Shown here piece by piece: positions 4,822 through 39,448 of a stretch of DNA of 64,000 nt. Positions within the stretch are counted from its first letter, which is position 1. The number at the start of each line of letters is the position of its first letter. The position numbers and the translations under genes are program-made. The notes under the pieces are model-generated. The model was given only the letters and a program-made list of their open reading frames with translations, ran no database searches and had not been told where the DNA came from. The stretch comes from Fimbriimonadales bacterium (GTDB lineage: Bacteria; Armatimonadota; Fimbriimonadia; Fimbriimonadales; ATM1): positions 165,973 through 229,972 of the forward strand of contig JBGTLG010000015.1 of NCBI GenBank assembly GCA_041744215.1. Direction: 5' to 3'.

Positions 4822-6258
4822 ATGTCATTTCGCGTCAACACAAACCTCGGAGCGATAAACGCGCTCCGGAATCTGAACATGACCGGCCTGGAGTTTGGAA
4901 AGTCAGTCACTCGGCTCTCCACCGGCTTGCGAATCACAACCGCAGCCGACGACCCGGCAGGGCTCATCATCTCGGAAAACTTTCGCGCCCAAATCGCGTC
5001 CCTGGATCAAGCGGTCCAGAACAACCAGGATGCGATCAATTATGCCAAGACGGCAGAAGGCGCACTTGACGAAGTCAGCCGGCTATTGAAGGATGCACGC
5101 AAGCTCGCGATCGCATCCGGAAACACCGGCGCCCTGGACGCAACAGCGATTCAGGCTAACCAAACTCAGCTTCAGTCGATCCTATCGTCGATCGACCGAA
5201 TCGCTTTGCAAACGCAGTTCGGCAACAAGAAGCTCCTCGACGGCTCAGCGGGTATCACTACCTCGGTGACGAACGCGCAAAACGTGGCTGCGATTACGAT
5301 GAGCGGGACGTTTGCTGGTTTCGCCGTAAACACTAGCGGCACGGTTACAGGTGAAGTAACAACTGCGGCAACGCGAGCAGTTATAACCGGCTCGACAACG
5401 TTCGGGTCGGGACTCACCACAGTCGTCGGCGCTGGCAACTTTGTCGTGAACGGCGTTGCATTTGCGACGGACGGCACAGAGACTCTCCAGTCCGTCCTCA
5501 CTCGCTTCAACAACGCGTCTTCCCAAACTGGAGTCACGTTCGACTACAACGGCACGAACGTCGTCTTGACGTCAAATGGCTGGGGCTCCAACGCGAAGAT
5601 CTCGTTCACAGATACGGCCGGGCGGATCATTGCGGCGGGCAACCAAACTGCCGCTGGTACGGACGCAATCGCGACCGTCACGGTAACCACCGCGAATGGC
5701 GTGGTTTCATCCACGTTCAGCGGCGGTCGAAATGGTGACAGCGGACTGCGGCTAACCGACATCTATGGGAACTCTCTGCTTCTGACCGAAGCTGGCAACG
5801 CAACTGGCGCAGCAGCAGCGATAGGTCGGATCGAGGCGGGATCTGCCCAGTTCCAGGTTGGCGCGAACGCGGGACAGACGGTCAGCCTTTCACTAGCGAA
5901 CATGCTGACGAGTCAACTTGGAGCCGGTGTCATAGCCGGCGAGACGTTGGCAACGATAAATGTCACGTCCGCCACAGGCGCAGAGAACTCGATCCGAGTA
6001 ATCGACGCGGCCATCACACAGGTCACCAAGATTCGAGGCGAGATCGGCTCCTTCCAGAGAAACGTTCTCGAATCGAATGTCAGATCGTTGGGCGTGGCCC
6101 GCGAAAATCTGACCGCGACAGAATCGACGATTCGCGACGCCGACATGGCGAGCGAGATCACCAACTTCACACGTCTGCAGATTCTTCAACAAGGCGGCCT
6201 CGCCGTCCTCAGTCAAGCTAATGCAGCGCCCCAAGCAGTACTCAGTCTTTTGAGGTAG
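4822..6258 (+). CDS. fliC: Flagellin, copy 1
   Basis: RLSTGLRITTAADDPAGL, FGNKKLLDG, FQVGANAGQ, SxIRDADMASE, QILQQGGLAVLSQAN; strong SD AAGGAGG. Confidence 0.95.
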   Translation: MSFRVNTNLGAINALRNLNMTGLEFGKSVTRLSTGLRITTAADDPAGLIISENFRAQIASLDQAVQNNQDAINYAKTAEGALDEVSRLLKDARKLAIASGNTGALDATAIQANQTQLQSILSSIDRIALQTQFGNKKLLDGSAGITTSVTNAQNVAAITMSGTFAGFAVNTSGTVTGEVTTAATRAVITGSTTFGSGLTTVVGAGNFVVNGVAFATDGTETLQSVLTRFNNASSQTGVTFDYNGTNVVLTSNGWGSNAKISFTDTAGRIIAAGNQTAAGTDAIATVTVTTANGVVSSTFSGGRNGDSGLRLTDIYGNSLLLTEAGNATGAAAAIGRIEAGSAQFQVGANAGQTVSLSLANMLTSQLGAGVIAGETLATINVTSATGAENSIRVIDAAITQVTKIRGEIGSFQRNVLESNVRSLGVARENLTATESTIRDADMASEITNFTRLQILQQGGLAVLSQANAAPQAVLSLLR

Positions 6259-6277
6259 TGGCACAATAGCGGGGCAA

Positions 6278-6317
6278 GAGCGGGGCTCGCCGAAAGGCGG
6301 GCCCTGCTCGTTTCTTT
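6278..6317 (+). terminator. Intrinsic terminator after flagellin 1
   Basis: GAGCGGGGCTCGCC-GAAA-GGCGGGCCCTGCTC stem-loop followed by GTTTCTTT. Confidence 0.75.
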
Positions 6318-6345
6318 GTCCTCGGTGAGAAAGCCACCATAGCAT
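6316..6345 (+). promoter_or_regulatory. Putative sigma70-type promoter of flagellin 2
   Basis: TTGTCC-N18-TAGCAT; a similar TAGTATTCCC lies upstream of flagellin 1 at 4685. Confidence 0.35.
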
Positions 6346-6392
6346 TCCCGGTATTGGTGCGAGGTGAATGCGGAACTGCCGTGTGGAAAACG

Positions 6393-6423
6393 TGTCACGG
6401 ACGGAGACAGGTCATGGATGACC
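6393..6423 (+). promoter_or_regulatory. CsrA/RsmA-type GGA hairpins in the flagellin 2 leader
   Basis: TGTC-ACGGACGGA-GACA (6393-6409) and GGTC-ATGGAT-GACC (6410-6423), each with ANGGA in the loop. Confidence 0.55.
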
Positions 6424-6534
6424 GCAGCGCTCCGTTGCCCGGAGTGCTTCTGTGAGGGTGGGCTGAGTCTACCGAGGGTTAGTGTCCTCTGAGGAAGAAG
6501 CAATTCCGGGTGACTGCAATCAAGGAGGAATCAG

Positions 6535-7971
6535 ATGTCGTTTCGTGTAAACACCAACGTTGGTGCATTGAACGCGCTGCGAAACCTGAACAGAACGGCG
6601 GCGGACTTTAACAAGTCTGTTACGCGGCTCTCAACGGGTCTTCGCATAACCACCGCAGCGGATGACCCTGCGGGCTTGATCATTTCTGAGAGCTTTCGCT
6701 CCCAGATTTCATCCATCGACCAGGCTGTCCAGAACAACCAGGACGCCATCAACTACGCTAAAACAGCCGAGGGCGCACTTGATGAAGTCAGCCGACTTCT
6801 CAACGATGCCCGAAAGCTGGCAATCGCGTCCGGTAACACCGGCACGCTTGACGCAACTGCAATCCAAGCCAACCAAACTCAGTTGGCTTCGATCCTCTCA
6901 TCCATTGACAGAATCGCGAACCAAACGCAGTTTGGAAACAAAAAGCTTCTGGATGGCTCTGCCGGCATCACATCAACTGTGACGAACGCGACCAACTATG
7001 GCGCGATCAACATCGGCGGAACGTTTGGCAATTATGCCGTCAACGCAAGCGGTAACGTTACTGTAGAAGTAACGACCGCTGCTACACGCGGGGTAGTTAC
7101 TGGCTCAACCACATTCGGCTCAGGGCTCGCCACGACGGTAGGAGCAGGCAGCTTCGTCGTGAACGGTGTCGCATTCTCTACTGACGGCACGGAAACTCTT
7201 CAAGGTCTGCTGACGCGCTTCAATAACGCTTCATCGCAAACCGGCGTCACGTTTGACTACAACGGCACGAACGTCGTGCTGACTACGAACGGCTATGGCA
7301 CCAACGCGAAAATCTCGTTCACTGATACAGCTGGACGGATCATCGCAGCAGGCAACCAAACTGCTGCTGGTGTGGACGCTGTCGCAACGGTAACCGTTAC
7401 GACTGCAAATGGCGCGACCTCAGCGACGTTCACTGGCGGCCGGAATGGAGACAGTGGGCTCAGGCTCACGGACACCTTTGGCAACGCCGTGCTTCTGACG
7501 CAAGCTGGCAACGCGACTGGCGCGGCGGCCGTAGTCGGTCGCATAGAAGCTGGTTCGGCGCAGTTCCAGGTTGGCGCAAACGCCGGCCAGAAGGTAAGCC
7601 TGTCACTGGCGAACATGCTCTCGAGCCAACTCGGTTCTGGCGTGGTCGCTGGCCAAACATTGGCGACTGTAAACGTGACTTCGGCCAGCGGAGCTGAAGA
7701 TGCCGTGAAAGTCATTGACGCTGCAATCTCGCAAGTGTCGAAATCTCGCGGCGACATAGGTTCATTCCAGAGAAACGTACTCGAGTCGAACGTTCGATCG
7801 CTCGGCGTTGCGCGGGAAAACCTAACTGCAACAGAATCTACGATCCGCGACGTGGATATGGCGTCGGAGATCACGAACTTCACTCGGCTGCAGATCCTGC
7901 AGCAGGGCGGTCTGGCCGTGCTATCGCAGGCCAACGCATCACCGCAGTCTGTTCTCAGCCTGCTTAGATAG
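6535..7971 (+). CDS. fliC: Flagellin, copy 2
   Basis: Same conserved flagellin N- and C-terminal motifs; 478 aa and colinear with copy 1; SD AAGGAGG. Confidence 0.95.
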   Translation: MSFRVNTNVGALNALRNLNRTAADFNKSVTRLSTGLRITTAADDPAGLIISESFRSQISSIDQAVQNNQDAINYAKTAEGALDEVSRLLNDARKLAIASGNTGTLDATAIQANQTQLASILSSIDRIANQTQFGNKKLLDGSAGITSTVTNATNYGAINIGGTFGNYAVNASGNVTVEVTTAATRGVVTGSTTFGSGLATTVGAGSFVVNGVAFSTDGTETLQGLLTRFNNASSQTGVTFDYNGTNVVLTTNGYGTNAKISFTDTAGRIIAAGNQTAAGVDAVATVTVTTANGATSATFTGGRNGDSGLRLTDTFGNAVLLTQAGNATGAAAVVGRIEAGSAQFQVGANAGQKVSLSLANMLSSQLGSGVVAGQTLATVNVTSASGAEDAVKVIDAAISQVSKSRGDIGSFQRNVLESNVRSLGVARENLTATESTIRDVDMASEITNFTRLQILQQGGLAVLSQANASPQSVLSLLR

Positions 7972-29690: not shown

Positions 29691-30416
29691 TCACCCTCCA
29701 AGCAGATTGCGCCTCGCGGGCAGCTCGCCTTCCAAGAACTCGATCCAAAATGGGAGAATCGCCTTTGAAACCTCGACCGCGCTCCTAAGGAACGTTGGCG
29801 GAGCCTCAAGTTCCTGAAGGCCACGGAGTGCGGCAATGGTTTGCCCAGAGACCGAGAGAGCAGGCCACCCCTCTTCCACCTCCCCGAAACCGACTGCGCC
29901 ACCTGCGCGCGGGCAAAGTACAGCTCGACCGGGTGGTATCGGCTCGCCAGTTTGCACCGATACGCCAAACTCCGGCGCGTGACCGATCAGCTCCATGAGA
30001 CGCAAATCTCCCCAAGCCAGCGGCGCCAGCGCTTCTTTGCTGCACTCAATCGCCTCTAGAACGAGGAGGCACAGGTCGAACGCGTCCTCATGGGGTTCTC
30101 CCGTGTGCAATGCAGCATCAAGCGTCTCTAACCAAACGAGCGAAGTACAAAGCCGGGCGTAATCAGTCCGAAGGCCCCCAAATGAGCGGGTTGGCTGTGC
30201 CTGTATGATGTAGTCGGTGTGACGCCCTGAAGCTAGTTCGAGCGAAGATCGCGTCAGCGGCTCGGTTATCCCCGCAAGCTTGCTGCGCGCCTTTCTCGCG
30301 CCCCTCGCCACCGCTACCACCTTCCCGCGCTCACGCGTTAAGAGAGAAACCCGCCGGTCAGACTCGGATGAATCCCACCGGCGCAACACCACGGCATCCA
30401 CCGTGGACGACGACAT
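29691..30416 (-). CDS. recO: DNA repair protein RecO
   Basis: AVVLRRWDSSESDRRVSLLTRERGKVVAVARGARKARSK OB-fold; degenerate Zn-finger region. Confidence 0.9.
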   Translation of the reverse strand: MSSSTVDAVVLRRWDSSESDRRVSLLTRERGKVVAVARGARKARSKLAGITEPLTRSSLELASGRHTDYIIQAQPTRSFGGLRTDYARLCTSLVWLETLDAALHTGEPHEDAFDLCLLVLEAIECSKEALAPLAWGDLRLMELIGHAPEFGVSVQTGEPIPPGRAVLCPRAGGAVGFGEVEEGWPALSVSGQTIAALRGLQELEAPPTFLRSAVEVSKAILPFWIEFLEGELPARRNLLGG

Positions 30417-30417
30417 T

Positions 30418-31203
30418 TTAGAGCGGCGGTCCCAGCCTCAGCCACTCGATCAATAGGAAATAAGCACGGTCGATAAAGAGCACGAATCGCGTCATCATCG
30501 TCGTGCCGAAAATCGCACCCAGCCCAATCATTAGCAACCATCGACCATATAGAGCCGAGCGCTGAACGAGCTTGTTCTTCTGTTCGAAGCTGTACAGGAA
30601 GTAGCTGAGGACTACGAGGAAGGTCAGCACCAGAATGATGTTGCTGACGGCATTGGAGATAGTCAGCGTGCCCGGAGGCTGTCCTGCCCCCGCCAACTCC
30701 CATGTGTTGGGAATGATCGGAACGGTCGTCGCCGCGAGTTGCGGCAAAAACTCCTCCTGGAACGCGCTGAACTGTTGCCCTGCCCAAAGCCCAAGGATGA
30801 TCCCGATAGGGATTCGGCTCAACCACGCCTGTTTCCGGCTGAAGACAAACAACCCCATAAAGCCGATTGGCAATAGCACCGCCCACGCCCACCGCCCAAG
30901 CGCCATCGGCATTGCGTCGGTTGGCACCTTGCCCAGCATCGCATCCCACCATTGGTCAGCGAGCACCTGAGTCCAGGCGACCACGATGGCGTACCCGGCG
31001 GCCAGCCCCACAAAGATATGCTCGACAAATCGGTACAGCTTGTTTTCGCGGTAGAGCAAACTGTAGATGCCGATTGTTAGGAATGCCCCGATGGTCAGAA
31101 CAACCATCGGCGGCATGATCTGCCAATCCTCTTTCTTAGTTAGCTCCTGCCACCACTCACCTTTGAAGATGCTGTGGTCAACTTGTGCAAGAAATTTCAT
31201 CAT
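30418..31203 (-). CDS. Conserved hypothetical polytopic membrane protein (operon subunit D)
   Basis: LTIGIYSLLYRENKLYRFVEHIFVGLAAGY and GRWLLMIGLGAIFGTTMMTR; about 6-7 TM segments. Confidence 0.8.
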   Translation of the reverse strand: MMKFLAQVDHSIFKGEWWQELTKKEDWQIMPPMVVLTIGAFLTIGIYSLLYRENKLYRFVEHIFVGLAAGYAIVVAWTQVLADQWWDAMLGKVPTDAMPMALGRWAWAVLLPIGFMGLFVFSRKQAWLSRIPIGIILGLWAGQQFSAFQEEFLPQLAATTVPIIPNTWELAGAGQPPGTLTISNAVSNIILVLTFLVVLSYFLYSFEQKNKLVQRSALYGRWLLMIGLGAIFGTTMMTRFVLFIDRAYFLLIEWLRLGPPL

Positions 31204-32048
31204 GACGAGTTTCCTGCCTTACGAACCATTACCATCGCGATATTGCCGAAAATGACAGCGACGATGAGTAGCATTAGCGCGAACGCAAGAGGACCCATGT
31301 ATCTCTGCCCGGCCGCCAAGTTGATCATCTTTTGATCTTCCTTGTACTTATCTTGCAACAACGTTTCGTAATCAAATGCGCCTTTTGCGCCAATCGCCAA
31401 TCCAAAAAGCTGGCCGCTGGCATAATAAGGAATGTTCTCTGCGCTCATGACAGCAGTGCAGAACAGTCCCAGTTTAGTCTTGTTCCGCATTCGCTGATAC
31501 CAGATATTGATGCTTGCCGACGCCGTCACAAGAATCACAGCCCGGCAGTCCGAAAGATCCGAGATGTTCGCCATCACAGGCGTGTTCACCACTCCCCTCG
31601 GTGCAAACTCTTTTCGAATGTCGTTCACGACGCCAAAGACATAGTTAGGGGCATCAGGAAAGAACCCTGCGATGACATAGTCCCGACCCTGCTCGTAATC
31701 GTTGTTGCCATGCTCCTTCGCAACTTCTTCAATGTTAACTCGAGCAACTTCGATCGCTTGTCCATCAATCGACGTTACAATAATCTTGACCTTCTTGCGC
31801 ATCAAGTGACGCATCAATGCTTGGAACTGGCTCCGACTTTCGCCACGAGTGCTGTTCGTCCAGTCGCTCTGAACAAGGACTACATCGCCCTCATTCATAG
31901 AGTCGATGTAATCGAACAATGAATCAGTCTTTGTAGATACAACGTTTTCGGCCTGGAGGGGTGACACCACTTGCCAGCCGACCAGAATCATGAGGACCAA
32001 GTAGAGGATCCGTCGATCAAGGGTTAGGAGCGCTTGCCAAACCTTCAT
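31200..32048 (-). CDS. Conserved hypothetical protein, TM - alpha/beta domain - TM (DUF6754-related; subunit C)
   Basis: DRRILYL N-terminal TM, PYYASGQLFGL..G.KGA..YE, C-terminal TM ..IFGNI; ATGA overlaps at both ends. Confidence 0.8.
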   Translation of the reverse strand: MKVWQALLTLDRRILYLVLMILVGWQVVSPLQAENVVSTKTDSLFDYIDSMNEGDVVLVQSDWTNSTRGESRSQFQALMRHLMRKKVKIIVTSIDGQAIEVARVNIEEVAKEHGNNDYEQGRDYVIAGFFPDAPNYVFGVVNDIRKEFAPRGVVNTPVMANISDLSDCRAVILVTASASINIWYQRMRNKTKLGLFCTAVMSAENIPYYASGQLFGLAIGAKGAFDYETLLQDKYKEDQKMINLAAGQRYMGPLAFALMLLIVAVIFGNIAMVMVRKAGNSS

Positions 32049-33244
32049 TCAGATACACCTCGCTCAAGGCCGAAGAGGATACGCATGCCCATAGCAAGCA
32101 CACCCAACGCAAGGCCTAAGTTGATGGCACGGATCGCTGGCGTGTTTAGATACGCCAGGATCCAGTCGCTTATCGAATCCAGCCTCAGGTTTCCAATGAA
32201 CTGATCCGAAGGCAGTCCGCTCGTGATTGCAAGTCCCAGCGGGACGAAACTCAATAGGATGATTAGAGCGGTGAACATCAGAATCGTGGCTTCGATAGAC
32301 CGCAGCCGGAAAGCGCGAAACGCAGCGGATAGAATGAAGAACGCGATCAAGCTGAATGTTGCGGCGTCCAGGACCTGAAGCATGTCCGTAAAAACGAATC
32401 GCTGGCTCTGCGCGATGAATCCTCGGGCCTGCTCCGCTCTCGCCCCCGCCCTGGCAAGTCCAGCAATCTCCGGTGTCATTTCGCCCGAGGCGGCGGCCGC
32501 TTCGATTTGGGCAGTCGACGCTGCAACAGCCGTCTCATAGACATCCTCCGCTTCAGTCTTTCGCGTCTCAAACTCCTCACGCGAGATCTCTCCCTTGCGC
32601 AAACGTCGGAACGCATCGTTCTCTGCATTCTGCTTAGTGGTGAATGCCTGTGACTCACTCCCCAAAGTCGCGACCTGCACCCAGCGCTCACTCATCTCCT
32701 GAGACTCCGCGGCCTTGTCGATCTCTGCGAGAGTGACATCAAGGCCGCGGCGCTCACTAAAGTTGGCCATTCCGAAGAACAACATCGTGAACATGCTGAT
32801 CAGCAAGACCGCGCTAAAGAACCAGTCCTTTTGCGCCTTCAGCAACCTGCCGAAGTGAACACGAAAAATGCTTATGACGCCAAGGACCAAGAGCATCGCA
32901 GAGATGATCTGAGCGGTTGACGAAGCGACAGGCAGAGCAGCTAACCAGTTCCCGATAACCGGTACCGGTGCGATCTCTTCACCTGTGGCGAGTCGCTGCT
33001 TCGGGATCAACCACTCTGCAACGTAATAGAAACCGCAGAGAAACGTCACGCCAACAATCAAAGGCTTCCTGAAGTTGCTCGGTACACGAGCGATTAGGAA
33101 AAGCAGAATTGAGGTGACGATAATCGTGCCAACAACCCACCAAAAGATTGGTTGGCTTAGTATTGGATCTGACGTACGCTCTAGAGCCCAGATGTTGGTG
33201 CCAGGCGGTGTGTCCTGCGCAAGGAATTGAATGGACCAGTTCAT
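32045..33244 (-). CDS. Conserved hypothetical polytopic membrane protein (subunit B)
   Basis: ATFSLIAFFILSAAFRAFRLRSIEATILM and PAIRAINLGLALGVLAMGMRILFGLER; coiled-coil loop in the middle. Confidence 0.8.
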   Translation of the reverse strand: MNWSIQFLAQDTPPGTNIWALERTSDPILSQPIFWWVVGTIIVTSILLFLIARVPSNFRKPLIVGVTFLCGFYYVAEWLIPKQRLATGEEIAPVPVIGNWLAALPVASSTAQIISAMLLVLGVISIFRVHFGRLLKAQKDWFFSAVLLISMFTMLFFGMANFSERRGLDVTLAEIDKAAESQEMSERWVQVATLGSESQAFTTKQNAENDAFRRLRKGEISREEFETRKTEAEDVYETAVAASTAQIEAAAASGEMTPEIAGLARAGARAEQARGFIAQSQRFVFTDMLQVLDAATFSLIAFFILSAAFRAFRLRSIEATILMFTALIILLSFVPLGLAITSGLPSDQFIGNLRLDSISDWILAYLNTPAIRAINLGLALGVLAMGMRILFGLERGVSE

Positions 33245-33245
33245 G

Positions 33246-34913
33246 CTACTGCCTCTTCTCCCTGGTCAGCTTCAAGAACCATGTGTCAGTTCTCCAATCG
33301 ATGTACTTCTGATCATTAGCTTCGTAAAGCGTCCGCTCCTCAATCGTCAGGCTGTTCGGATCGACAGGCCGAATTTGATTGTACGAGTGGATCACAACAG
33401 CCCCGAGAATGAACGCCATAAACAGCATCTTTGACCAGTCGACGCCGATGAGGCTTCCCAACAAGACGGGCTGTCGTCCCAGATAAGCACTCGCGGCGTA
33501 GAACTCATCGCCGAGCAACACGTAGTCGCAGGCCGCAATGAAAAACGGCGTCTGCGTTGTTTGCGTCGAAGCGGCCACCTGGATTGCGCCCACGATGTTA
33601 GCGTTCTCCGCAAAGATCATCGATTCGGCAAAAAACTCGCCCATGAAGAACGCGGCCGCAACTCGCTCACGTTGAATGATGCCGGCAACTCCGGATGCAA
33701 ACGCGAACTGGCGATCTGAAACAAACCGAACGCTGTCTGGATCGAACTGCTCCGGAACTCCTTCGCTCAAGTACACGTCACGAGCGATCTCTTGGGCAAC
33801 GCCAAAGACTGCCGGGTTAGCAGTAAGCAGCCTGATAGGCGTCGCAAATCTCGCAGCTGACCGGATGACTGACCCGAACACGGTCAGCGCCTGCACAGAG
33901 ATTCCGTCCAATACGCCGATGCCTGGCACCATTAAGACCGGACGAGCGGTTTCTGTCGCGCGCCCGATCGCTTCGTCGATCTGGTCGAGTCCGGCAATTC
34001 GCCGGATCGTCAACGTTTTGCCTTTCTTTGCACGCAGAATGTTGAAGATGATGAAAGCGCCGACCAGGAGCACGGTGCCGATCAACATCCAGCCGCTCTT
34101 TGAAAACTGCAGTCCGCCAGCCCAACGAATCGAGTCATCGAGGAGAGCCCTATCAGCATACGCGCTAACCTCGTCGACACTGCCAAACGCTTCTGACCTG
34201 AACACCAAGACGCCTTCCGGCGTGTCCGGGTCGGCGATGTCGAGAGTGTAGGTTCCGTCGGGGAGTTTCCAGCCATAGAGCTGAAACTCAGTCAGGGTGC
34301 GTGCCCAGTCCAGAGTCGCGCCGCCCAAAGCTTCAGACCGCTGCTGGATCCATTCAAGGTGGTTGTCCGTCCAGTTGCCTAACTCTCCTTGGGCCTGAAT
34401 CAGGTTCGCAAACTCCCGACTCTCGGTGATTGTGATCCCGCCTAGAGCATCCGAGGCCGGGATGTCAACAACGACGACATTGGAAGGCAGCGTGTAAGCA
34501 TACAGGGGACCGCCGGGCGACGAACCAACCATCGAACTGGATGTCGCGCCGAGCTCAGTCGTACGGTTGGATCGCACGATACTCACCGGGTGCTGCGTCC
34601 CCCGGTCGGCACGCTCCTCAGTCAACAGCCACGCACGAGCAGAGCCCTCATCCGAGAATGGAAGGGATTCAATCACGTGGATAGCACCGCCTACTACTTC
34701 GACGCGGTCGACAATCGCTTGCCTCGACTCGAGGTTCCACAGATAGAACGAAACGTCGTCGCGCGTAAACTCCTGCTTTTCGCTGTTTTTTGCGACCAGA
34801 GCCGTTTGTCGCGCGCTGAGGTAGGCGGCTTCATCCGCGAAGCGCGGGCCACCGCAGCCGACCGTCAGCGCAAGGAGTGCGGTCGCTGTTGCCAAAAAGA
34901 GGAGCCGCCTCAC
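33246..34913 (-). CDS. Lipoprotein with repeated ectodomain and DUF6754-like C-terminal domain (subunit A)
   Basis: Lipobox LTVG-C; IRRIAGLDQIDEAIGRATE, QFAFASG, FFAESMIFAE, PFFIAACDYVLLGDEFYAASAYL. Confidence 0.8.
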   Translation of the reverse strand: MRRLLFLATATALLALTVGCGGPRFADEAAYLSARQTALVAKNSEKQEFTRDDVSFYLWNLESRQAIVDRVEVVGGAIHVIESLPFSDEGSARAWLLTEERADRGTQHPVSIVRSNRTTELGATSSSMVGSSPGGPLYAYTLPSNVVVVDIPASDALGGITITESREFANLIQAQGELGNWTDNHLEWIQQRSEALGGATLDWARTLTEFQLYGWKLPDGTYTLDIADPDTPEGVLVFRSEAFGSVDEVSAYADRALLDDSIRWAGGLQFSKSGWMLIGTVLLVGAFIIFNILRAKKGKTLTIRRIAGLDQIDEAIGRATETARPVLMVPGIGVLDGISVQALTVFGSVIRSAARFATPIRLLTANPAVFGVAQEIARDVYLSEGVPEQFDPDSVRFVSDRQFAFASGVAGIIQRERVAAAFFMGEFFAESMIFAENANIVGAIQVAASTQTTQTPFFIAACDYVLLGDEFYAASAYLGRQPVLLGSLIGVDWSKMLFMAFILGAVVIHSYNQIRPVDPNSLTIEERTLYEANDQKYIDWRTDTWFLKLTREKRQ

Positions 34914-35209
34914 GCCGTCCTCTCCTCTGGAGTTTCACGCTGTTCGAGGCGCCGTATGAGCATTTCGATGTTCTCCCTGCTGCTGATGAACTGAGAGTAT
35001 TCGTCGACAGATTTGAACCCGAAGAAAGGCATCACGAACGGCGATACTGCGACCACCGCGTGAGCAGCGATGTTAGCGATAGGCTTATGCATCTCAAGAA
35101 AGAGAATCGCCGGAGTCTGGAGCTTTCTCTTTGAGATCTCCTCCGAAACCCTCCGAATGATGGTCTCTCTCTGCTCCTCCGTCAGTGGGCTGTCCCAAAT
35201 CGCCGGCAT
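34910..35209 (-). CDS. Conserved hypothetical small protein
   Basis: PAILFLEMHKP...SPF...RENIEMLIRRLE; stop overlaps the next start (GTGA). Confidence 0.7.
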   Translation of the reverse strand: MPAIWDSPLTEEQRETIIRRVSEEISKRKLQTPAILFLEMHKPIANIAAHAVVAVSPFVMPFFGFKSVDEYSQFISSRENIEMLIRRLEQRETPEERTA

Positions 35210-35624
35210 GTTTAGTTCTCCAATACGAGACTGCGTCCTCGATCTCCTGCAAGTTTTCGCTCGCTCGCAAAAAGACGCCCCGAAACGGAGCGGTTCGCGA
35301 CGAGGTAGCGAGGGGCGACAGTTTTACACCATCTTCGCCTCGGATCACCCGTTTGACGTCGCCCCAGGCGATAAAAGTCGTCGAGAGGCCGCACCGACTC
35401 GAAGCGCCGTCCGACCGCAGCTGATACCGGACGGGCAGAAGAAAGTCCGAGAGTGCGAAGAGAATAACGGCGGCGCATATGGGAAACAGCCAGATAGAAC
35501 TCATGAGCACAGCCCCAAGCCCCCCCGCCGCGGCCGCAACCGTCACGACGAGCGCCGCCTTCGCAGGCTCGGATCTTGCTAAGTGAACTGTCCAACTGAG
35601 TTCCCGTGGTTCGACTTCTTTCAT
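35094..35624 (-). CDS. Hypothetical membrane protein (2 TM + PH-like beta domain)
   Basis: LSWTVHLAR, two TMs, FLLPVRY, GVKLSPL...FRGVFL; start trimmed to MKEVEP. Confidence 0.65.
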   Translation of the reverse strand: MKEVEPRELSWTVHLARSEPAKAALVVTVAAAAGGLGAVLMSSIWLFPICAAVILFALSDFLLPVRYQLRSDGASSRCGLSTTFIAWGDVKRVIRGEDGVKLSPLATSSRTAPFRGVFLRASENLQEIEDAVSYWRTKHAGDLGQPTDGGAERDHHSEGFGGDLKEKAPDSGDSLS

Positions 35625-35730
35625 CCTTAGACTTTCGCAGTACCGTGTTGGATTCGCCCACTTTACATCCGCGCACCGGCAACTCGCCTCCATGAGACCC
35701 CGAGATCACTTATGCAACACCACAAAGCAC

Positions 35731-35761
35731 GATCCGGGCTCCCAAAAGGGGAGCCCGGATC
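35731..35761 (-). terminator. Terminator hairpin downstream of 35786..36955
   Basis: GATCCGGGCTCCC-AAAAG-GGGAGCCCGGATC, a 13-bp perfect stem. Confidence 0.65.
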
Positions 35762-35785
35762 GATGCCTGTGCGTTAGCGAACGAG

Positions 35786-36955
35786 CTACCGCGTTCGGAA
35801 CTTCGCTTCGAGGTCTCGGCCCTCGAATCTGGACTTAACCTCCATATAGGAGACTGAGCGAAGATCCCGCGACAGGTCCATGCGACCCGTGCCGGAGGCG
35901 CGTCGCCCGTACGCAGACGTGAGCCTGAGGTCGACCCGCGTACTGCCTTGGCGGTAGGTGTAGGTTCCTTCAAACGAGTGATAGCCCCGCCCGTCGTACC
36001 ATTGGCTTGTGAACTGGCCGCCTGGACGAAGATTGACATCCATCCACCGGATCGCAGTTTTAGCGTTGCCATACTTCACTTCGCCGGAACCCGAATGAGA
36101 GGCCCGTAGCTCGAAGTAGGGTGAGCCGCCACCATACGAACTCGAGGCATCAAACTGCGCCATGAACCGGTCTCCGTTCGCATAACCTGACATGAAGATC
36201 CTGCTGAAGCCCCTTCGGTCTGCGGCAAAGATCACCGTGCCGGAACCGCTCGCTCGCCGATCACCAGCCGCATTCGTGATGCGAAGATCGACCGTGTTCG
36301 AGTTGCGTTCCGTCCAAGTGCCGCTGAAGGTGTAGGGAAATCTCCCAGAGAGGTTGACCGTGAAGTGACCGGTCGGCAGGAGAGACACCGTCGCCTCGTG
36401 GACTTGGGTAGTTCCGCTCCGATTGAACGAGACTGTACCTGACCCGCGTTGAGGGAGGGCACCAAAGCTCGGTCCTCCGAACCCCGGGGGGCCGAAGCCA
36501 GGTCCACCCACGCCGCCGGAGCGGTAAGGAGCGAACGACAGGCTAAACGAAGACCGATTCGCCCAACCTGATAAATCCAGCCGAGTGATAGTATTTAGCT
36601 GAGAGCCGTAGCTGACCGTGCCGCTCCCTTGAGCGTTACGGTCGTTAAACGCGTTGTGAACCGACAGCCTAACGCTGTTGGAGCCGCCTTGGCTCCAAGA
36701 GCCGTAGATTCTGTGTCGATTGCGACCCACTACGTGCAGGTCAAACGTGAAGTCGCCTTTGAGATGCAATTCGACGCGTTCGACCTGCATCTCTTTTGAG
36801 CCTTCCCACTGCAGCCATCCGTCGCCGCGGCCGGTTGACGTTCCCAGGGCGTACGAACTGCGTGGTTGGGCTACCGCCAGACTCGCCGCACAAAGCAGTG
36901 CTGCGGCGCAAATGGTCCGTGCATAGGTTGCAACAAGATTTGTTCTCAACTTCAT
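35786..36955 (-). CDS. Secreted protein with three tandem ~105-aa beta-rich repeats
   Basis: Signal peptide (..SLAVA-Q); repeats G.G...../G.W..../V.L....A..R.A.G.G; strong SD AAGGAGG. Confidence 0.75.
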   Translation of the reverse strand: MKLRTNLVATYARTICAAALLCAASLAVAQPRSSYALGTSTGRGDGWLQWEGSKEMQVERVELHLKGDFTFDLHVVGRNRHRIYGSWSQGGSNSVRLSVHNAFNDRNAQGSGTVSYGSQLNTITRLDLSGWANRSSFSLSFAPYRSGGVGGPGFGPPGFGGPSFGALPQRGSGTVSFNRSGTTQVHEATVSLLPTGHFTVNLSGRFPYTFSGTWTERNSNTVDLRITNAAGDRRASGSGTVIFAADRRGFSRIFMSGYANGDRFMAQFDASSSYGGGSPYFELRASHSGSGEVKYGNAKTAIRWMDVNLRPGGQFTSQWYDGRGYHSFEGTYTYRQGSTRVDLRLTSAYGRRASGTGRMDLSRDLRSVSYMEVKSRFEGRDLEAKFRTR

Positions 36956-37091: not shown

Positions 37092-38069
37092 CTATCTCCA
37101 ACCAGAGAACAGGCTGCTGACTGACCTATCGAGGTGGATCCTGCGGATTGCCTCACCCAAGAGAGGTGCAGCAGGGAGAACAGTCAGCTTGGGGAATTGC
37201 TTCCTCGGCTCGATTGGAATCGTGTCCGTGGCGATGACTCGGCTGACGGGCCCTTCCTGAAGTCGCTGCGGCGCGCTCGCGCTGAAAACGGCATGAGTGC
37301 AGGTGACGATGACATCCTTAGCTCCGCGGCCCAAAAGCGCCTCGGCGCCGTGAATCACCGACCCACCACTGTCGACGATGTCGTCAATCATGACGGCGAT
37401 CTTCCCTTCGACGTCGCCGATGATCTCCATGATGTCGACTTTGCCGGGCTCGGGACGCCGCTTGGCGATGATGGCGAGCGGTTTGCCGAGATGTTCAGCC
37501 AGCGCCCTCGCCCTTGTCACCCCGCCGACATCCGGCGATACGACCACAACATCCCGGTCTTCAAATCCTTCGCTGATGAGGTACTTCCCGATCTCTGGCC
37601 CTAGATAAAGATGGTCGACAGGGATGTTGAAGAAGCCTTGGATCTGTTCCGCGTGCAGATCGCAAGTCAAGATTCGGTGCGCCCCAGCCATCTCGATGAG
37701 ATCGGCCACCAATCTGGCGGTCACTGGTTCACGCGGCTTGATCTTCTTGTCCTGCCGAGCGTAGCCGTAGTACGGCATCACAACGGTTACGCGCCTCGCC
37801 GATGCCCGCCGGAAAGCGTCCAGCATGATCAGGAGTTCCATGATGTTGTCGTTCGTTGGGTGACAGGTCGGTTGAACGAGGAAAATGTCGCAGCCTCGCG
37901 CGCTCTCATTGACCTGGACCTGCGTCTCGCCGTCACTAAACCGGGTGCAAGTCAGCCGCCCCATCTGCACGCCAAGGTAGTCGGCGATGTTGTGCGCCAA
38001 CTCTGGGTGCGCGTTGCCCGTAAACAGCCGCATCATCGACAAATCGTCCTTGATAACATCGTGATTCAT
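37092..38069 (-). CDS. prs: Ribose-phosphate pyrophosphokinase
   Basis: FSDGET, PYYGYARQD, DLHAEQIQGFF, VSPDVGG, IDDIVDSGG; ATG overlaps the glmU stop. Confidence 0.97.
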   Translation of the reverse strand: MNHDVIKDDLSMMRLFTGNAHPELAHNIADYLGVQMGRLTCTRFSDGETQVQVNESARGCDIFLVQPTCHPTNDNIMELLIMLDAFRRASARRVTVVMPYYGYARQDKKIKPREPVTARLVADLIEMAGAHRILTCDLHAEQIQGFFNIPVDHLYLGPEIGKYLISEGFEDRDVVVVSPDVGGVTRARALAEHLGKPLAIIAKRRPEPGKVDIMEIIGDVEGKIAVMIDDIVDSGGSVIHGAEALLGRGAKDVIVTCTHAVFSASAPQRLQEGPVSRVIATDTIPIEPRKQFPKLTVLPAAPLLGEAIRRIHLDRSVSSLFSGWR

Positions 38070-39448
38070 TACCGCTTCTTCCTGTTTCGCCATTTCTCCG
38101 CCCAACTCTCCTTGATCTCTTGCCGCGAACGGCCAATTGCCAGTGCGTCGTCTGGCACATCCTGTGTTACCGTGCTGCCTGCCGCAATGAACGCGCCATT
38201 CCCTATCGAAAGAGGCGCGATCAGTGTCGAGTTTGAACCAATAAAGGCATCATTGCCGATCTCGGTACCGTGCTTCGAGAAGCCATCATAGTTGCAGGTG
38301 ATTGTGCCTGCACCGATATTCGTTCGGGCACCTACCGTCGCGTCGCCAATGTAAGCAAGATGAGACGCGCTTGACTCTTCGCCAAGAGAGCTCGCTTTGA
38401 CCTCCACGAAGTTCCCGATCTTTACCCCTCGCCCCAGCACCGTGTGCGGCCGCAGATTCGCGAACGGCCCGACTCGGCAGTCGTCCCCAAGCTCGACTCG
38501 ATTGACGTGACTCATGTGGATGACGCATCGCTCGCCGACGGTGGAGTCGGTCACTCGAGTGGCAGGTCCCAGTTCGGAAGCCGCGCCAACCGTTGTCCTG
38601 CCTTCCAAAACGGTCATCGGCCGAATGATGCAATCCGGACCGAGCATGACGTCTGCGCCAATGAACGTGGAGTCCGGATCGTCAATCGTGACACCAGACA
38701 TCGCGAATTCCCGCAGAATCCGCATGCGCATGATTTTCGAAACCTCGGCGAGTTGCCAGCGATCATTGACGCCCAACAGCAGCTCAAACTCCTCGAAGAC
38801 GACGGCCGTGCAAACCCCACCCGATTCGTTGATCATTCCGACGAGATCCGTCAAGTAAAACTCGCCCTTCGCATTTGCATTACCCACATTGGGAATGTGC
38901 TTCCGAAGGGCCGAGGCGGAGAAGCAGTAGAACGACGTCCCAACTTCACGGACCGCCTTTTGTTGTTCGTCTGCGTCGAGTTCCTCGACAATCTTGACGA
39001 CGCATCCGGCTGCGTCCCGAATAACACGGCCGTAGTTCCGGGGGTCCTGCAAAACGCATGTCGCAACGACGCCATCTGCGCCGGAGGACTGCATCTCGGC
39101 GACGAGTCGCTTGAACGCGTAGCCCGTGATTAGCGGAGCGTCGCCTGGCCCCACCAAAACCGGCCCCTCGAATCCTTCTAGAAGCGGCAAGGCCTGCTGC
39201 ACAGCATGCGCAGTCCCAAGTTGATCCGGTTGTAAGGCATATCGGTAGCGGTCGCCTAACGCTCCTTGCACCTTCTCAGCCCCATGGCCACAGATTAGGA
39301 TTGGGTGATCCACCCCTGCCATTTGCATGGCACGGCCCACGTGATCCGCCATCGGCACGCCACAAACGGTGTGAAGCACTTTCGGCAGGTCAGACTTCAT
39401 CCGTGTGCCTTTGCCGGCAGCAAGTACGATTCCAGCAGTTTGGGACAA
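38069..39448 (-). CDS. glmU: Bifunctional UDP-GlcNAc pyrophosphorylase / glucosamine-1-P acetyltransferase
   Basis: LAAGKGTRMKSDLPKVLH, QLGTAHAV, GNFVEVK, NIGAGTITCNYDG; adjacent to prs. Confidence 0.97.
   Translation of the reverse strand: MSQTAGIVLAAGKGTRMKSDLPKVLHTVCGVPMADHVGRAMQMAGVDHPILICGHGAEKVQGALGDRYRYALQPDQLGTAHAVQQALPLLEGFEGPVLVGPGDAPLITGYAFKRLVAEMQSSGADGVVATCVLQDPRNYGRVIRDAAGCVVKIVEELDADEQQKAVREVGTSFYCFSASALRKHIPNVGNANAKGEFYLTDLVGMINESGGVCTAVVFEEFELLLGVNDRWQLAEVSKIMRMRILREFAMSGVTIDDPDSTFIGADVMLGPDCIIRPMTVLEGRTTVGAASELGPATRVTDSTVGERCVIHMSHVNRVELGDDCRVGPFANLRPHTVLGRGVKIGNFVEVKASSLGEESSASHLAYIGDATVGARTNIGAGTITCNYDGFSKHGTEIGNDAFIGSNSTLIAPLSIGNGAFIAAGSTVTQDVPDDALAIGRSRQEIKESWAEKWRNRKKR

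Follow-up and report, generated by a model that had tools for sequence, protein, structure and literature searches.

An energising module is shared among ECF transporters, and some ABC sugar importers have one ATPase in common. The ASKHA ATPases GlmL/MutL, DdrA and EutA go with B12-dependent enzymes and have a Rossmann-like client domain as their target, and NqrA is a soluble subunit sitting on a membrane complex. Chaperones, kinases and cytoskeletal proteins use the actin fold, which is not known from transport. One published source (PMC5597319) counts glutamate mutase and diol dehydratase reactivase among the members of the actin superfamily. The family DUF6754 (Pfam PF20539) is only catalogued, and we found no function, structure or paper for it; a clear member, here called subunit A, stands at the centre of the operon analysed in this work. 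The window, by which we mean the whole stretch of DNA studied, covers 64,000 nucleotides (nt) of a Fimbriimonadales bacterium. Its operon consists of six co-directional minus-strand genes, U1, U2, A, B, C and D, at 30418-35693 in the list of open reading frames (ORFs), on the contig labelled C15 of genome G000. We tentatively propose, at slightly less than even confidence, that these six proteins belong to an ATP-driven membrane machine, most likely for uptake, whose eight components also include an ATPase of family PF13941 and a soluble protein, P, both encoded elsewhere in the genome.

The six genes are not mere chance ORFs: their order is kept in 4/4 related Armatimonadota loci, D has 1,300 relatives (representatives at E <= 0.001) and C has 123 homologues. 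All C homologues that bear a name in their source are called hypothetical, and none has a Pfam domain. The cassette also occurs in six more distant loci. Among cassette loci, U2 was present in 10/10 and U1 in 7/10, and the two small upstream genes do travel with the cassette, as had been supposed. For the DUF6754 unit we found 1,682 short-form relatives; the best 120 of the 1,682 are 53-76% identical and include OP10G_4670, a DUF6754 protein of the cultured Fimbriimonas ginsengisoli. The ESM Atlas holds DUF6754 in Armatimonadota, Planctomycetota, Zixibacteria and Cloacimonadota; structure search there returned DUF6754 clusters only, and feature search returned nothing else. An earlier sequence-only reading of this stretch had proposed an uncharacterised operon for a membrane complex, conserved and centred on DUF6754, with genes that would co-occur in other genomes. 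All of this was borne out: residues 273-511 of A match PF20539 (E 1.8e-84, 283.3 bits against a cut-off of 27), and A and D occur together in 172 of 201 genomes.

The same genomes point to a partner outside the window. The sole GlmL/MutL-family gene of genome G000 lies on contig C39 and encodes a 633-residue ATPase that matches PF13941 over the full profile (positions 1-450 of 450; E 2.2e-128, 429.3 bits against a cut-off of 27). We compared its distribution with that of the cassette in 201 genomes of Armatimonadota, the window's own phylum, with joint counts made by hand from tables. DUF6754 was present in 175 genomes, the ATPase in 176, D in 172 and P in 171. DUF6754 and the ATPase were both present in 173 and both absent from 23, leaving five discordant genomes: G193 and G200 have DUF6754 and no ATPase, and G002, G083 and G167 (weak match) have the ATPase and no DUF6754. 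DUF6754 and D agreed as closely, with both in 172, neither in 26, A only in three and D only in none; the three genomes with A and no D (G151, G173 and G196) are all fragmented assemblies. P is also missing from all 23 genomes that lack A and the ATPase. In one family 0/18 genomes have DUF6754, and the count is also 0/18 for D, for the ATPase and for P, and the joint losses are spread over at least five lineages.

Gene clustering points the same way. In six fetched loci the ATPase gene sits inside the cassette cluster, in the order U1-U2-ATPase-P-A-B-C-D or (U1-)U2-A-B-C-D-ATPase(-P), and in clusters of the first type P is placed directly between the ATPase and A. U2 is always directly upstream of the ATPase or of A in the cassette loci. 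P, a soluble protein of about 371 residues, was found by clustering the neighbours of stand-alone ATPase genes and is downstream of the ATPase in 7/21 such loci; genome G000 has a single orthologue, on contig C4 (E 3.5e-126). Residues ~56-119 of P weakly match RnfC_N, NQRA_N and Biotin_lipoyl (18-27 bits, mostly below the cut-offs). When P was compared with NqrA and RnfC, the N-terminal barrel-sandwich region was the only one to match (13-24 bits against cut-offs of 25-850), and no flavin or Fe-S motif was found in P and no other Nqr or Rnf subunits were found.

The ATPase carries the actin-fold (ASKHA) motifs DCGSTTTK, DIGGATTD and GSGGVLSH, invariant in 27/27 sequences, and has no Walker A pattern. 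It is ~130-180 residues longer than its GlmL/MutL relatives, with a conserved C-terminal extension, and it scores below the NCBIfam cut-offs for GlmL (NF040745 equivalog, 227.1 against 475; TIGR01319 subfamily, 171.9 against 204.05). Among named proteins, its nearest relatives are accessory to B12 mutases. The genes around it on C39 encode an M55 peptidase, a metallophosphoesterase, a CE4-like protein and a DUF4015 protein; no B12 mutase gene lies beside it on this contig, the rest of the genome not having been searched for mutase genes. Docking prediction of the ATPase against residues 294-488 of A gave a median of 0.56 over three runs (0.51, 0.56 and 0.58; best control 0.00), with at least 92% contact agreement and a partner pLDDT of at least 77. 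In calibration the mark was reached by 116/157 solved complexes and 2/215 mismatched pairs; only 18 of the 157 solved complexes reached it with a score of 0.60 or under, as here, and so did both mismatches. Because our runs used our own alignments, these counts apply only roughly. The model lends weak support to docking of the ATPase on the A domain. We base the link between ATPase and cassette on the phyletic profile and gene clustering, and give docking little weight.

The subunits have the architectures that had been described for them. Subunit A (33246..34913, minus strand, 555 residues) begins with a lipoprotein-like signal ending LTVGC (34854-34913), followed by an ectodomain (34098-34853) and the DUF6754 unit (33381-34097), which consists of a transmembrane (TM) helix at 275-293, a Rossmann-like domain and a second helix near 489-507. 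In this domain 38 columns are invariant, among them C-D-Y and, following the first strand, a PG.G loop; the ectodomain is common only to the window and its two closest relatives, L001 and L002. Subunit B (32045..33244, minus strand, 399 residues) is a polytopic membrane protein with about seven hydrophobic segments; S306, A307, A308, R310 and R313 are invariant in its conserved C-terminal module, and a charged insert at about residues 165-285 is found only in the window and the same two relatives.

Subunit C (31200..32048, minus strand, 282 residues) is predicted to place two TM helices around a Rossmann-like domain (31281-31952; AF2, pLDDT 93.3, pTM 0.88), in which the beta1-loop motif QSDWTNSTRGES is conserved and E70 invariant. 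Foldseek with the C model returned weak generic matches (best E 1.2e-3, TM about 0.3), and VIA-align placed 1kjn_B on top (Z 9.3, root-mean-square deviation (rmsd) 3.5 Å, 138 residues aligned), with about 50 unrelated Rossmann folds next in rank (Z 7-8). The modelled fold of C is of a generic Rossmann type. Subunit D (30418..31203, minus strand, 261 residues) is modelled as a monomer with six long helices (pLDDT 85.6, pTM 0.67). G66, F202, G229 and R239 are invariant in D, and E61, R130, Q155 and R246 near-invariant. The motifs singled out earlier in D (EHIFVG, GRWLLM and MMTR) do fall on conserved columns, among them the invariant G66 and R239 and also E61, G220 and M225, each kept in 90% or more of 80 sequences. 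Searches with this monomer model found no structural relative of D: the best Foldseek match had E 1.5, and VIA-align found 0/48,161 chains at Z >= 5, its best match reaching Z 4.5 (rmsd 4.5 Å, 57 residues aligned).

Of the two small proteins, U1 (35094..35624, minus strand) has 176 residues from the ATG at 35624 and 199 from the first ATG at 35693; a hydrophobic hairpin is followed by a conserved soluble domain of ~70 residues with the motif KLSPL..SR..PFRGVFLR. U2 (34910..35209, minus strand, 99 residues) has a single Pro-containing hydrophobic stretch and invariant P33, E39, P43, P57 and E82. We propose that both are small membrane accessory proteins of the machine. No fused forms of U2 were seen among proteins of 297-2,000 residues, which is weak evidence. 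The overlapping or abutting stops and starts read earlier from the sequence are present as described, with 4-nt overlaps at the U2/A, B/C and C/D junctions and a 1-nt spacer at A/B. U1 and U2 have 116 nt in common (35094-35209), where the end of U1 and the beginning of U2 are read in different frames. This overlap is present in L001 and L002 too, and the conserved part of U1 stops earlier, at ~residue 155.

Pfam and NCBIfam scans of U1, U2, B, C and D gave no match at E <= 0.1, and at the same threshold none of the six proteins mapped to TRAP, TTT, ECF or Mrp families, in keeping with the earlier view that this is not one of those systems. Patterns for Walker A, CxxCH, CxxC and 4Fe-4S were absent from U1 to D, which agrees with its report of no Walker A, Fe-S or heme motif. 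Profile searches against PDB sequences found nothing below E 0.018 for A, B, C, D, U1, U2 and P, and no match for the ATPase in a search made to E 0.01 only. Seven of the proteins matched 0 families among the PADLOC anti-phage models.

We deduced sidedness from Lys and Arg counts over family alignments, together with an extra helix in two natural C-D fusions. After the first TM helix of A the mean Lys plus Arg count is 4.03 (39 sequences), and the Rossmann-like domain of A is predicted to be cytoplasmic. The counts at the two ends of C are 3.19 and 3.54; because these place both ends in the cytoplasm, the Rossmann-like domain of C is predicted to face outward, into the extracytoplasmic space. 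The N terminus of D is placed outside by the same counts. Two of 150 proteins among the D representatives listed (P0267 and P0325) are natural C-D fusions, and both have an extra membrane helix in the linker, as expected because the deduced sidedness of C and D requires one.

Under this topology the insertion points seen in D homologues correspond to outward-facing loops. BamB-like propellers (PF13360) were found above the cut-off in three of 27 long D homologues; in one more of the 27 the PF13360 total was above the cut-off, with no stretch passing alone. A lyase-N-like sandwich is inserted in one D homologue. B', the second copy of B in this genome (locus L007, G000:C3, 2956-4515, minus strand), has an N-terminal extension of ~250 residues with an Asp-box-like motif (SIDGTNW) and without a Pfam match, and this extension may be a beta-propeller ectodomain. 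The add-on domains predicted to face outward differ between lineages, which upholds the earlier suggestion of a variable extracytoplasmic domain.

In genome G000 the system is spread over five loci: the window (C15), A'B' (C3), C'D' (C33), the ATPase (C39) and P (C4). A, B, C and D are each present in two copies, and the ATPase, P, U1 and U2 in one. The paralogue A' scores 295.7 bits for DUF6754. The A'B' / C'D' split is kept in 3/3 genomes of the window's family, and in other families three genomes with two copies carry both cassettes intact. The split in the second set marks A-B and C-D as separable gene pairs, and the copy numbers suggest that two membrane sets share a single ATPase and a single P. 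Many D matches in the 201-genome search were flagged with one internal stop; for D' the flagged stop is probably that of its neighbour at the 4-nt overlap, not a sign of a broken gene, because the D' ORF (G000:C33) is intact. Downstream of C'D', at 5226-7057 (minus strand) of locus L008, are two family-less proteins (246 and 182 residues) and a CBS-domain protein. Two of the genome's three PF01522 polysaccharide-deacetylase genes lie directly upstream of A'B' (L007, C3, 5678-6370) and of the ATPase (L010, C39, 5178-6200). A link between these genes and the system was rejected: the only copy in G078 is far from the system genes, and G156 has the system without any copy. We regard the adjacency as a local coincidence because it is not kept in these two genomes.

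In the mechanism that we propose, the ATPase, together with P, would bind A at its cytoplasmic Rossmann-like domain, and ATP binding and hydrolysis would alter the conformation of A. The helices of A, B and D would relay this change to the outward-facing domain of C and the variable ectodomains, and a ligand captured outside would be carried across the cytoplasmic membrane. Conserved charges are present in the membrane helices (E61, R130 and R239 of D; R310 and R313 of B). We consider uptake the likeliest direction because one shared energiser with several diverged units bearing different outward domains follows the logic of importers that share an ATPase. The bolder form of the proposal is possible and somewhat doubtful: that this is a new class of primary transporter, or of energy-coupled trans-membrane machine, powered by an actin-fold ATPase where other such machines have an ABC, P-type or rotary ATPase. 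One ATPase-P engine would then dock on interchangeable four-protein membrane units, with the second Rossmann-like domain and lineage-specific capture domains outside, and the machine would be almost universal in Armatimonadota and occur in several further phyla.

Several observations weigh against an ATP-driven uptake machine. Two genomes that are 92-93% complete, G002 and G083, have the ATPase and P, and neither A nor D could be detected in them; the cassette may be missing from these assemblies, or the ATPase-P pair may work with another partner. The ATPase gene is apart from the cassette in most genomes: in 20/20 further ATPase loci, U1, U2 and A-D were absent within about 5 kb. No subunit resembles a known transporter, the best match of D being the one at Z 4.5 over 57 residues, obtained with an isolated model of pTM 0.67. 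We take the GlmL-type relatives to be chaperones for B12 enzymes, not motors. Literature searches on DUF6754, PF20539, PF13941, the GlmL family and ASKHA membrane complexes returned no relevant paper, and both transport and the direction of any transport are inferred. As to the two exceptional genomes, the ATPase and P genes are adjacent in each (G002:C24, locus L038; G083:C360, locus L039), and the genes that follow the pair are not informative. A candidate fusion of P in G002 was rejected, its 957-residue open frame being a stop-free stretch that overlaps the ATPase gene.

These points leave room for other readings, of which the least probable, in our view highly improbable, is the one originally put forward: a self-contained, ATPase-free secondary transporter or channel with (A+B)/(C+D) pseudo-symmetry. 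The window contains no ATPase gene, D and B have conserved intramembrane charges, and in 3/3 genomes of the window's family the second set divides precisely between A'B' and C'D', all of which would suit such a device. However, the ATPase and P share the phyletic profile of the cassette and, in some relatives, its cluster, and this part of the original reading did not survive. The sequence resemblance seen between A and C was not confirmed, and the pseudo-symmetry finds no support in sequence: BLASTP found nothing for A and C, and hhalign gave probabilities of 1.9% for the full A and C units, 3.2% for their soluble domains and 1.3% for B against D. When the two soluble domains were aligned under relaxed settings, 148 columns ran colinear, without significance. 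Homology of A with C and of B with D is neither shown nor excluded by these comparisons; it is not detectable. A and C are alike in layout, with domains predicted to face opposite sides of the membrane, and the two halves are therefore not equivalent. A transmembrane signalling device, in which the outward domains would sense a ligand and pass the signal inward to A, the ATPase and P, is also very unlikely. It would fit outward domains that vary and a cytoplasmic part, attached to them, that is very strongly conserved, but no kinase, cyclase, HAMP, receiver or DNA-binding domain was found in any of the eight proteins, and four membrane subunits with ~17 helices would be heavy for a sensor.

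The family membership of the ATPase, at 429 bits for PF13941, would suit a different role for it, namely that of a reactivase-like chaperone which loads or exchanges a cofactor or ligand held by the A domain, as GlmL, DdrA and EutA presumably do for B12 enzymes; A-D would then be a membrane enzyme, not a transporter. That its closest named relatives are accessory to B12 mutases and that the A domain has 38 invariant columns, including C-D-Y and the PG.G loop, would fit. No B12, Fe-S, heme or dinucleotide motif was found in A-D, however; the ATPase does not reach the cut-off of the GlmL equivalog (227 against 475) or of the subfamily (172 against 204), no mutase gene lies beside it, and the variable outward-facing domains would be left without a role. 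We consider a cofactor-handling enzyme improbable. Unlikely, and yet the most serious of these competitors, is a machine for envelope work, by mechanotransmission or export, in which the ATPase would move the outward domains so as to assemble, extract, flip or activate an envelope component, with no solute being imported. The domain of C and the add-ons (propellers, beta-sandwich and the lipoprotein ectodomain of A) face outward under the deduced topology, the system is a near-core trait of a diderm phylum (175/201 genomes), and D is unlike a closed transporter bundle. But no envelope-biogenesis gene is consistently linked to the cassette: the adjacency of polysaccharide deacetylase is not kept in relatives, and PrsA, GlmU and RecO are local neighbours only.

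Of these neighbours, recO (29691..30416, minus strand; RecO_N, RecO_C and TIGR00613 in Pfam and NCBIfam) adjoins D with a 1-nt spacer, and the gene chain runs on past D. No terminator-like site was found between D and recO, which is probably co-transcribed with the operon. It follows D in L001-L003 only, with no match in L011-L016, and appears to be a local passenger kept in nearer relatives only. On the other side, a terminator-like hairpin (35730..35762, minus strand; 14-bp stem, 11 G-C pairs) closes the gene upstream of the operon and is likely the 5' limit of the transcription unit. That side also holds, at 35786-36955 (minus strand), a gene with a strong terminator-like hairpin 3' of it; the 389-residue product has a signal-peptide-like N terminus and internal repeats with recurring 'SGSGTV' blocks, has no Pfam or NCBIfam match, and is conserved only in the closest relative, L001 (53% identity). 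Next come an ORF at 37092-38105 (minus strand) that we take to be PrsA-like and a 459-residue ORF at 38069-39448 (minus strand), presumably GlmU-like, which overlap by 37 nt. The PrsA-like gene is upstream of the cassette in 4/4 Fimbriimonadales-type loci.

If the proposal of an ATP-driven machine is correct, a large part of uncultured bacterial diversity would carry an energy-coupled membrane machine of an undescribed kind: ~87% of the sampled Armatimonadota have the DUF6754 system, and the family extends to Planctomycetota, Zixibacteria and Cloacimonadota. The parts are scattered over up to five loci, and single-locus annotation therefore misses the ATPase. With the eight proteins listed, and with sidedness predicted and conserved residues defined for them, the question has become testable.

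Only A and the ATPase belong to curated families; B, C, D, U1, U2 and P belong to none. P resembles NqrA and RnfC weakly, at residues ~56-119, and the likeness is confined to that small N-terminal barrel-sandwich-hybrid domain. ECF transporters and shared-ATPase ABC sugar importers show no homology to the cassette, and we found no Walker A, ABC domain or EcfT, the fold of the ATPase being actin-like here; the logic may nevertheless be similar, with one ATPase and one P for two diverged membrane sets. The type VII ABC systems (MacB, FtsEX and LolCDE), to which we likewise found no sequence or fold relationship, would be analogous in coupling a cytoplasmic ATPase to extracytoplasmic domains, possibly without a substrate channel. 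GlmL/MutL, DdrA and EutA differ in that the ATPase described here scores below the GlmL cut-offs, is extended at its C terminus, lacks mutase neighbours and co-occurs with membrane proteins. It nevertheless shares with them the full-length PF13941 match and intact ASKHA motifs, and the action of those proteins on a client domain resembles the action that the ATPase may have on the Rossmann-like domain of A.

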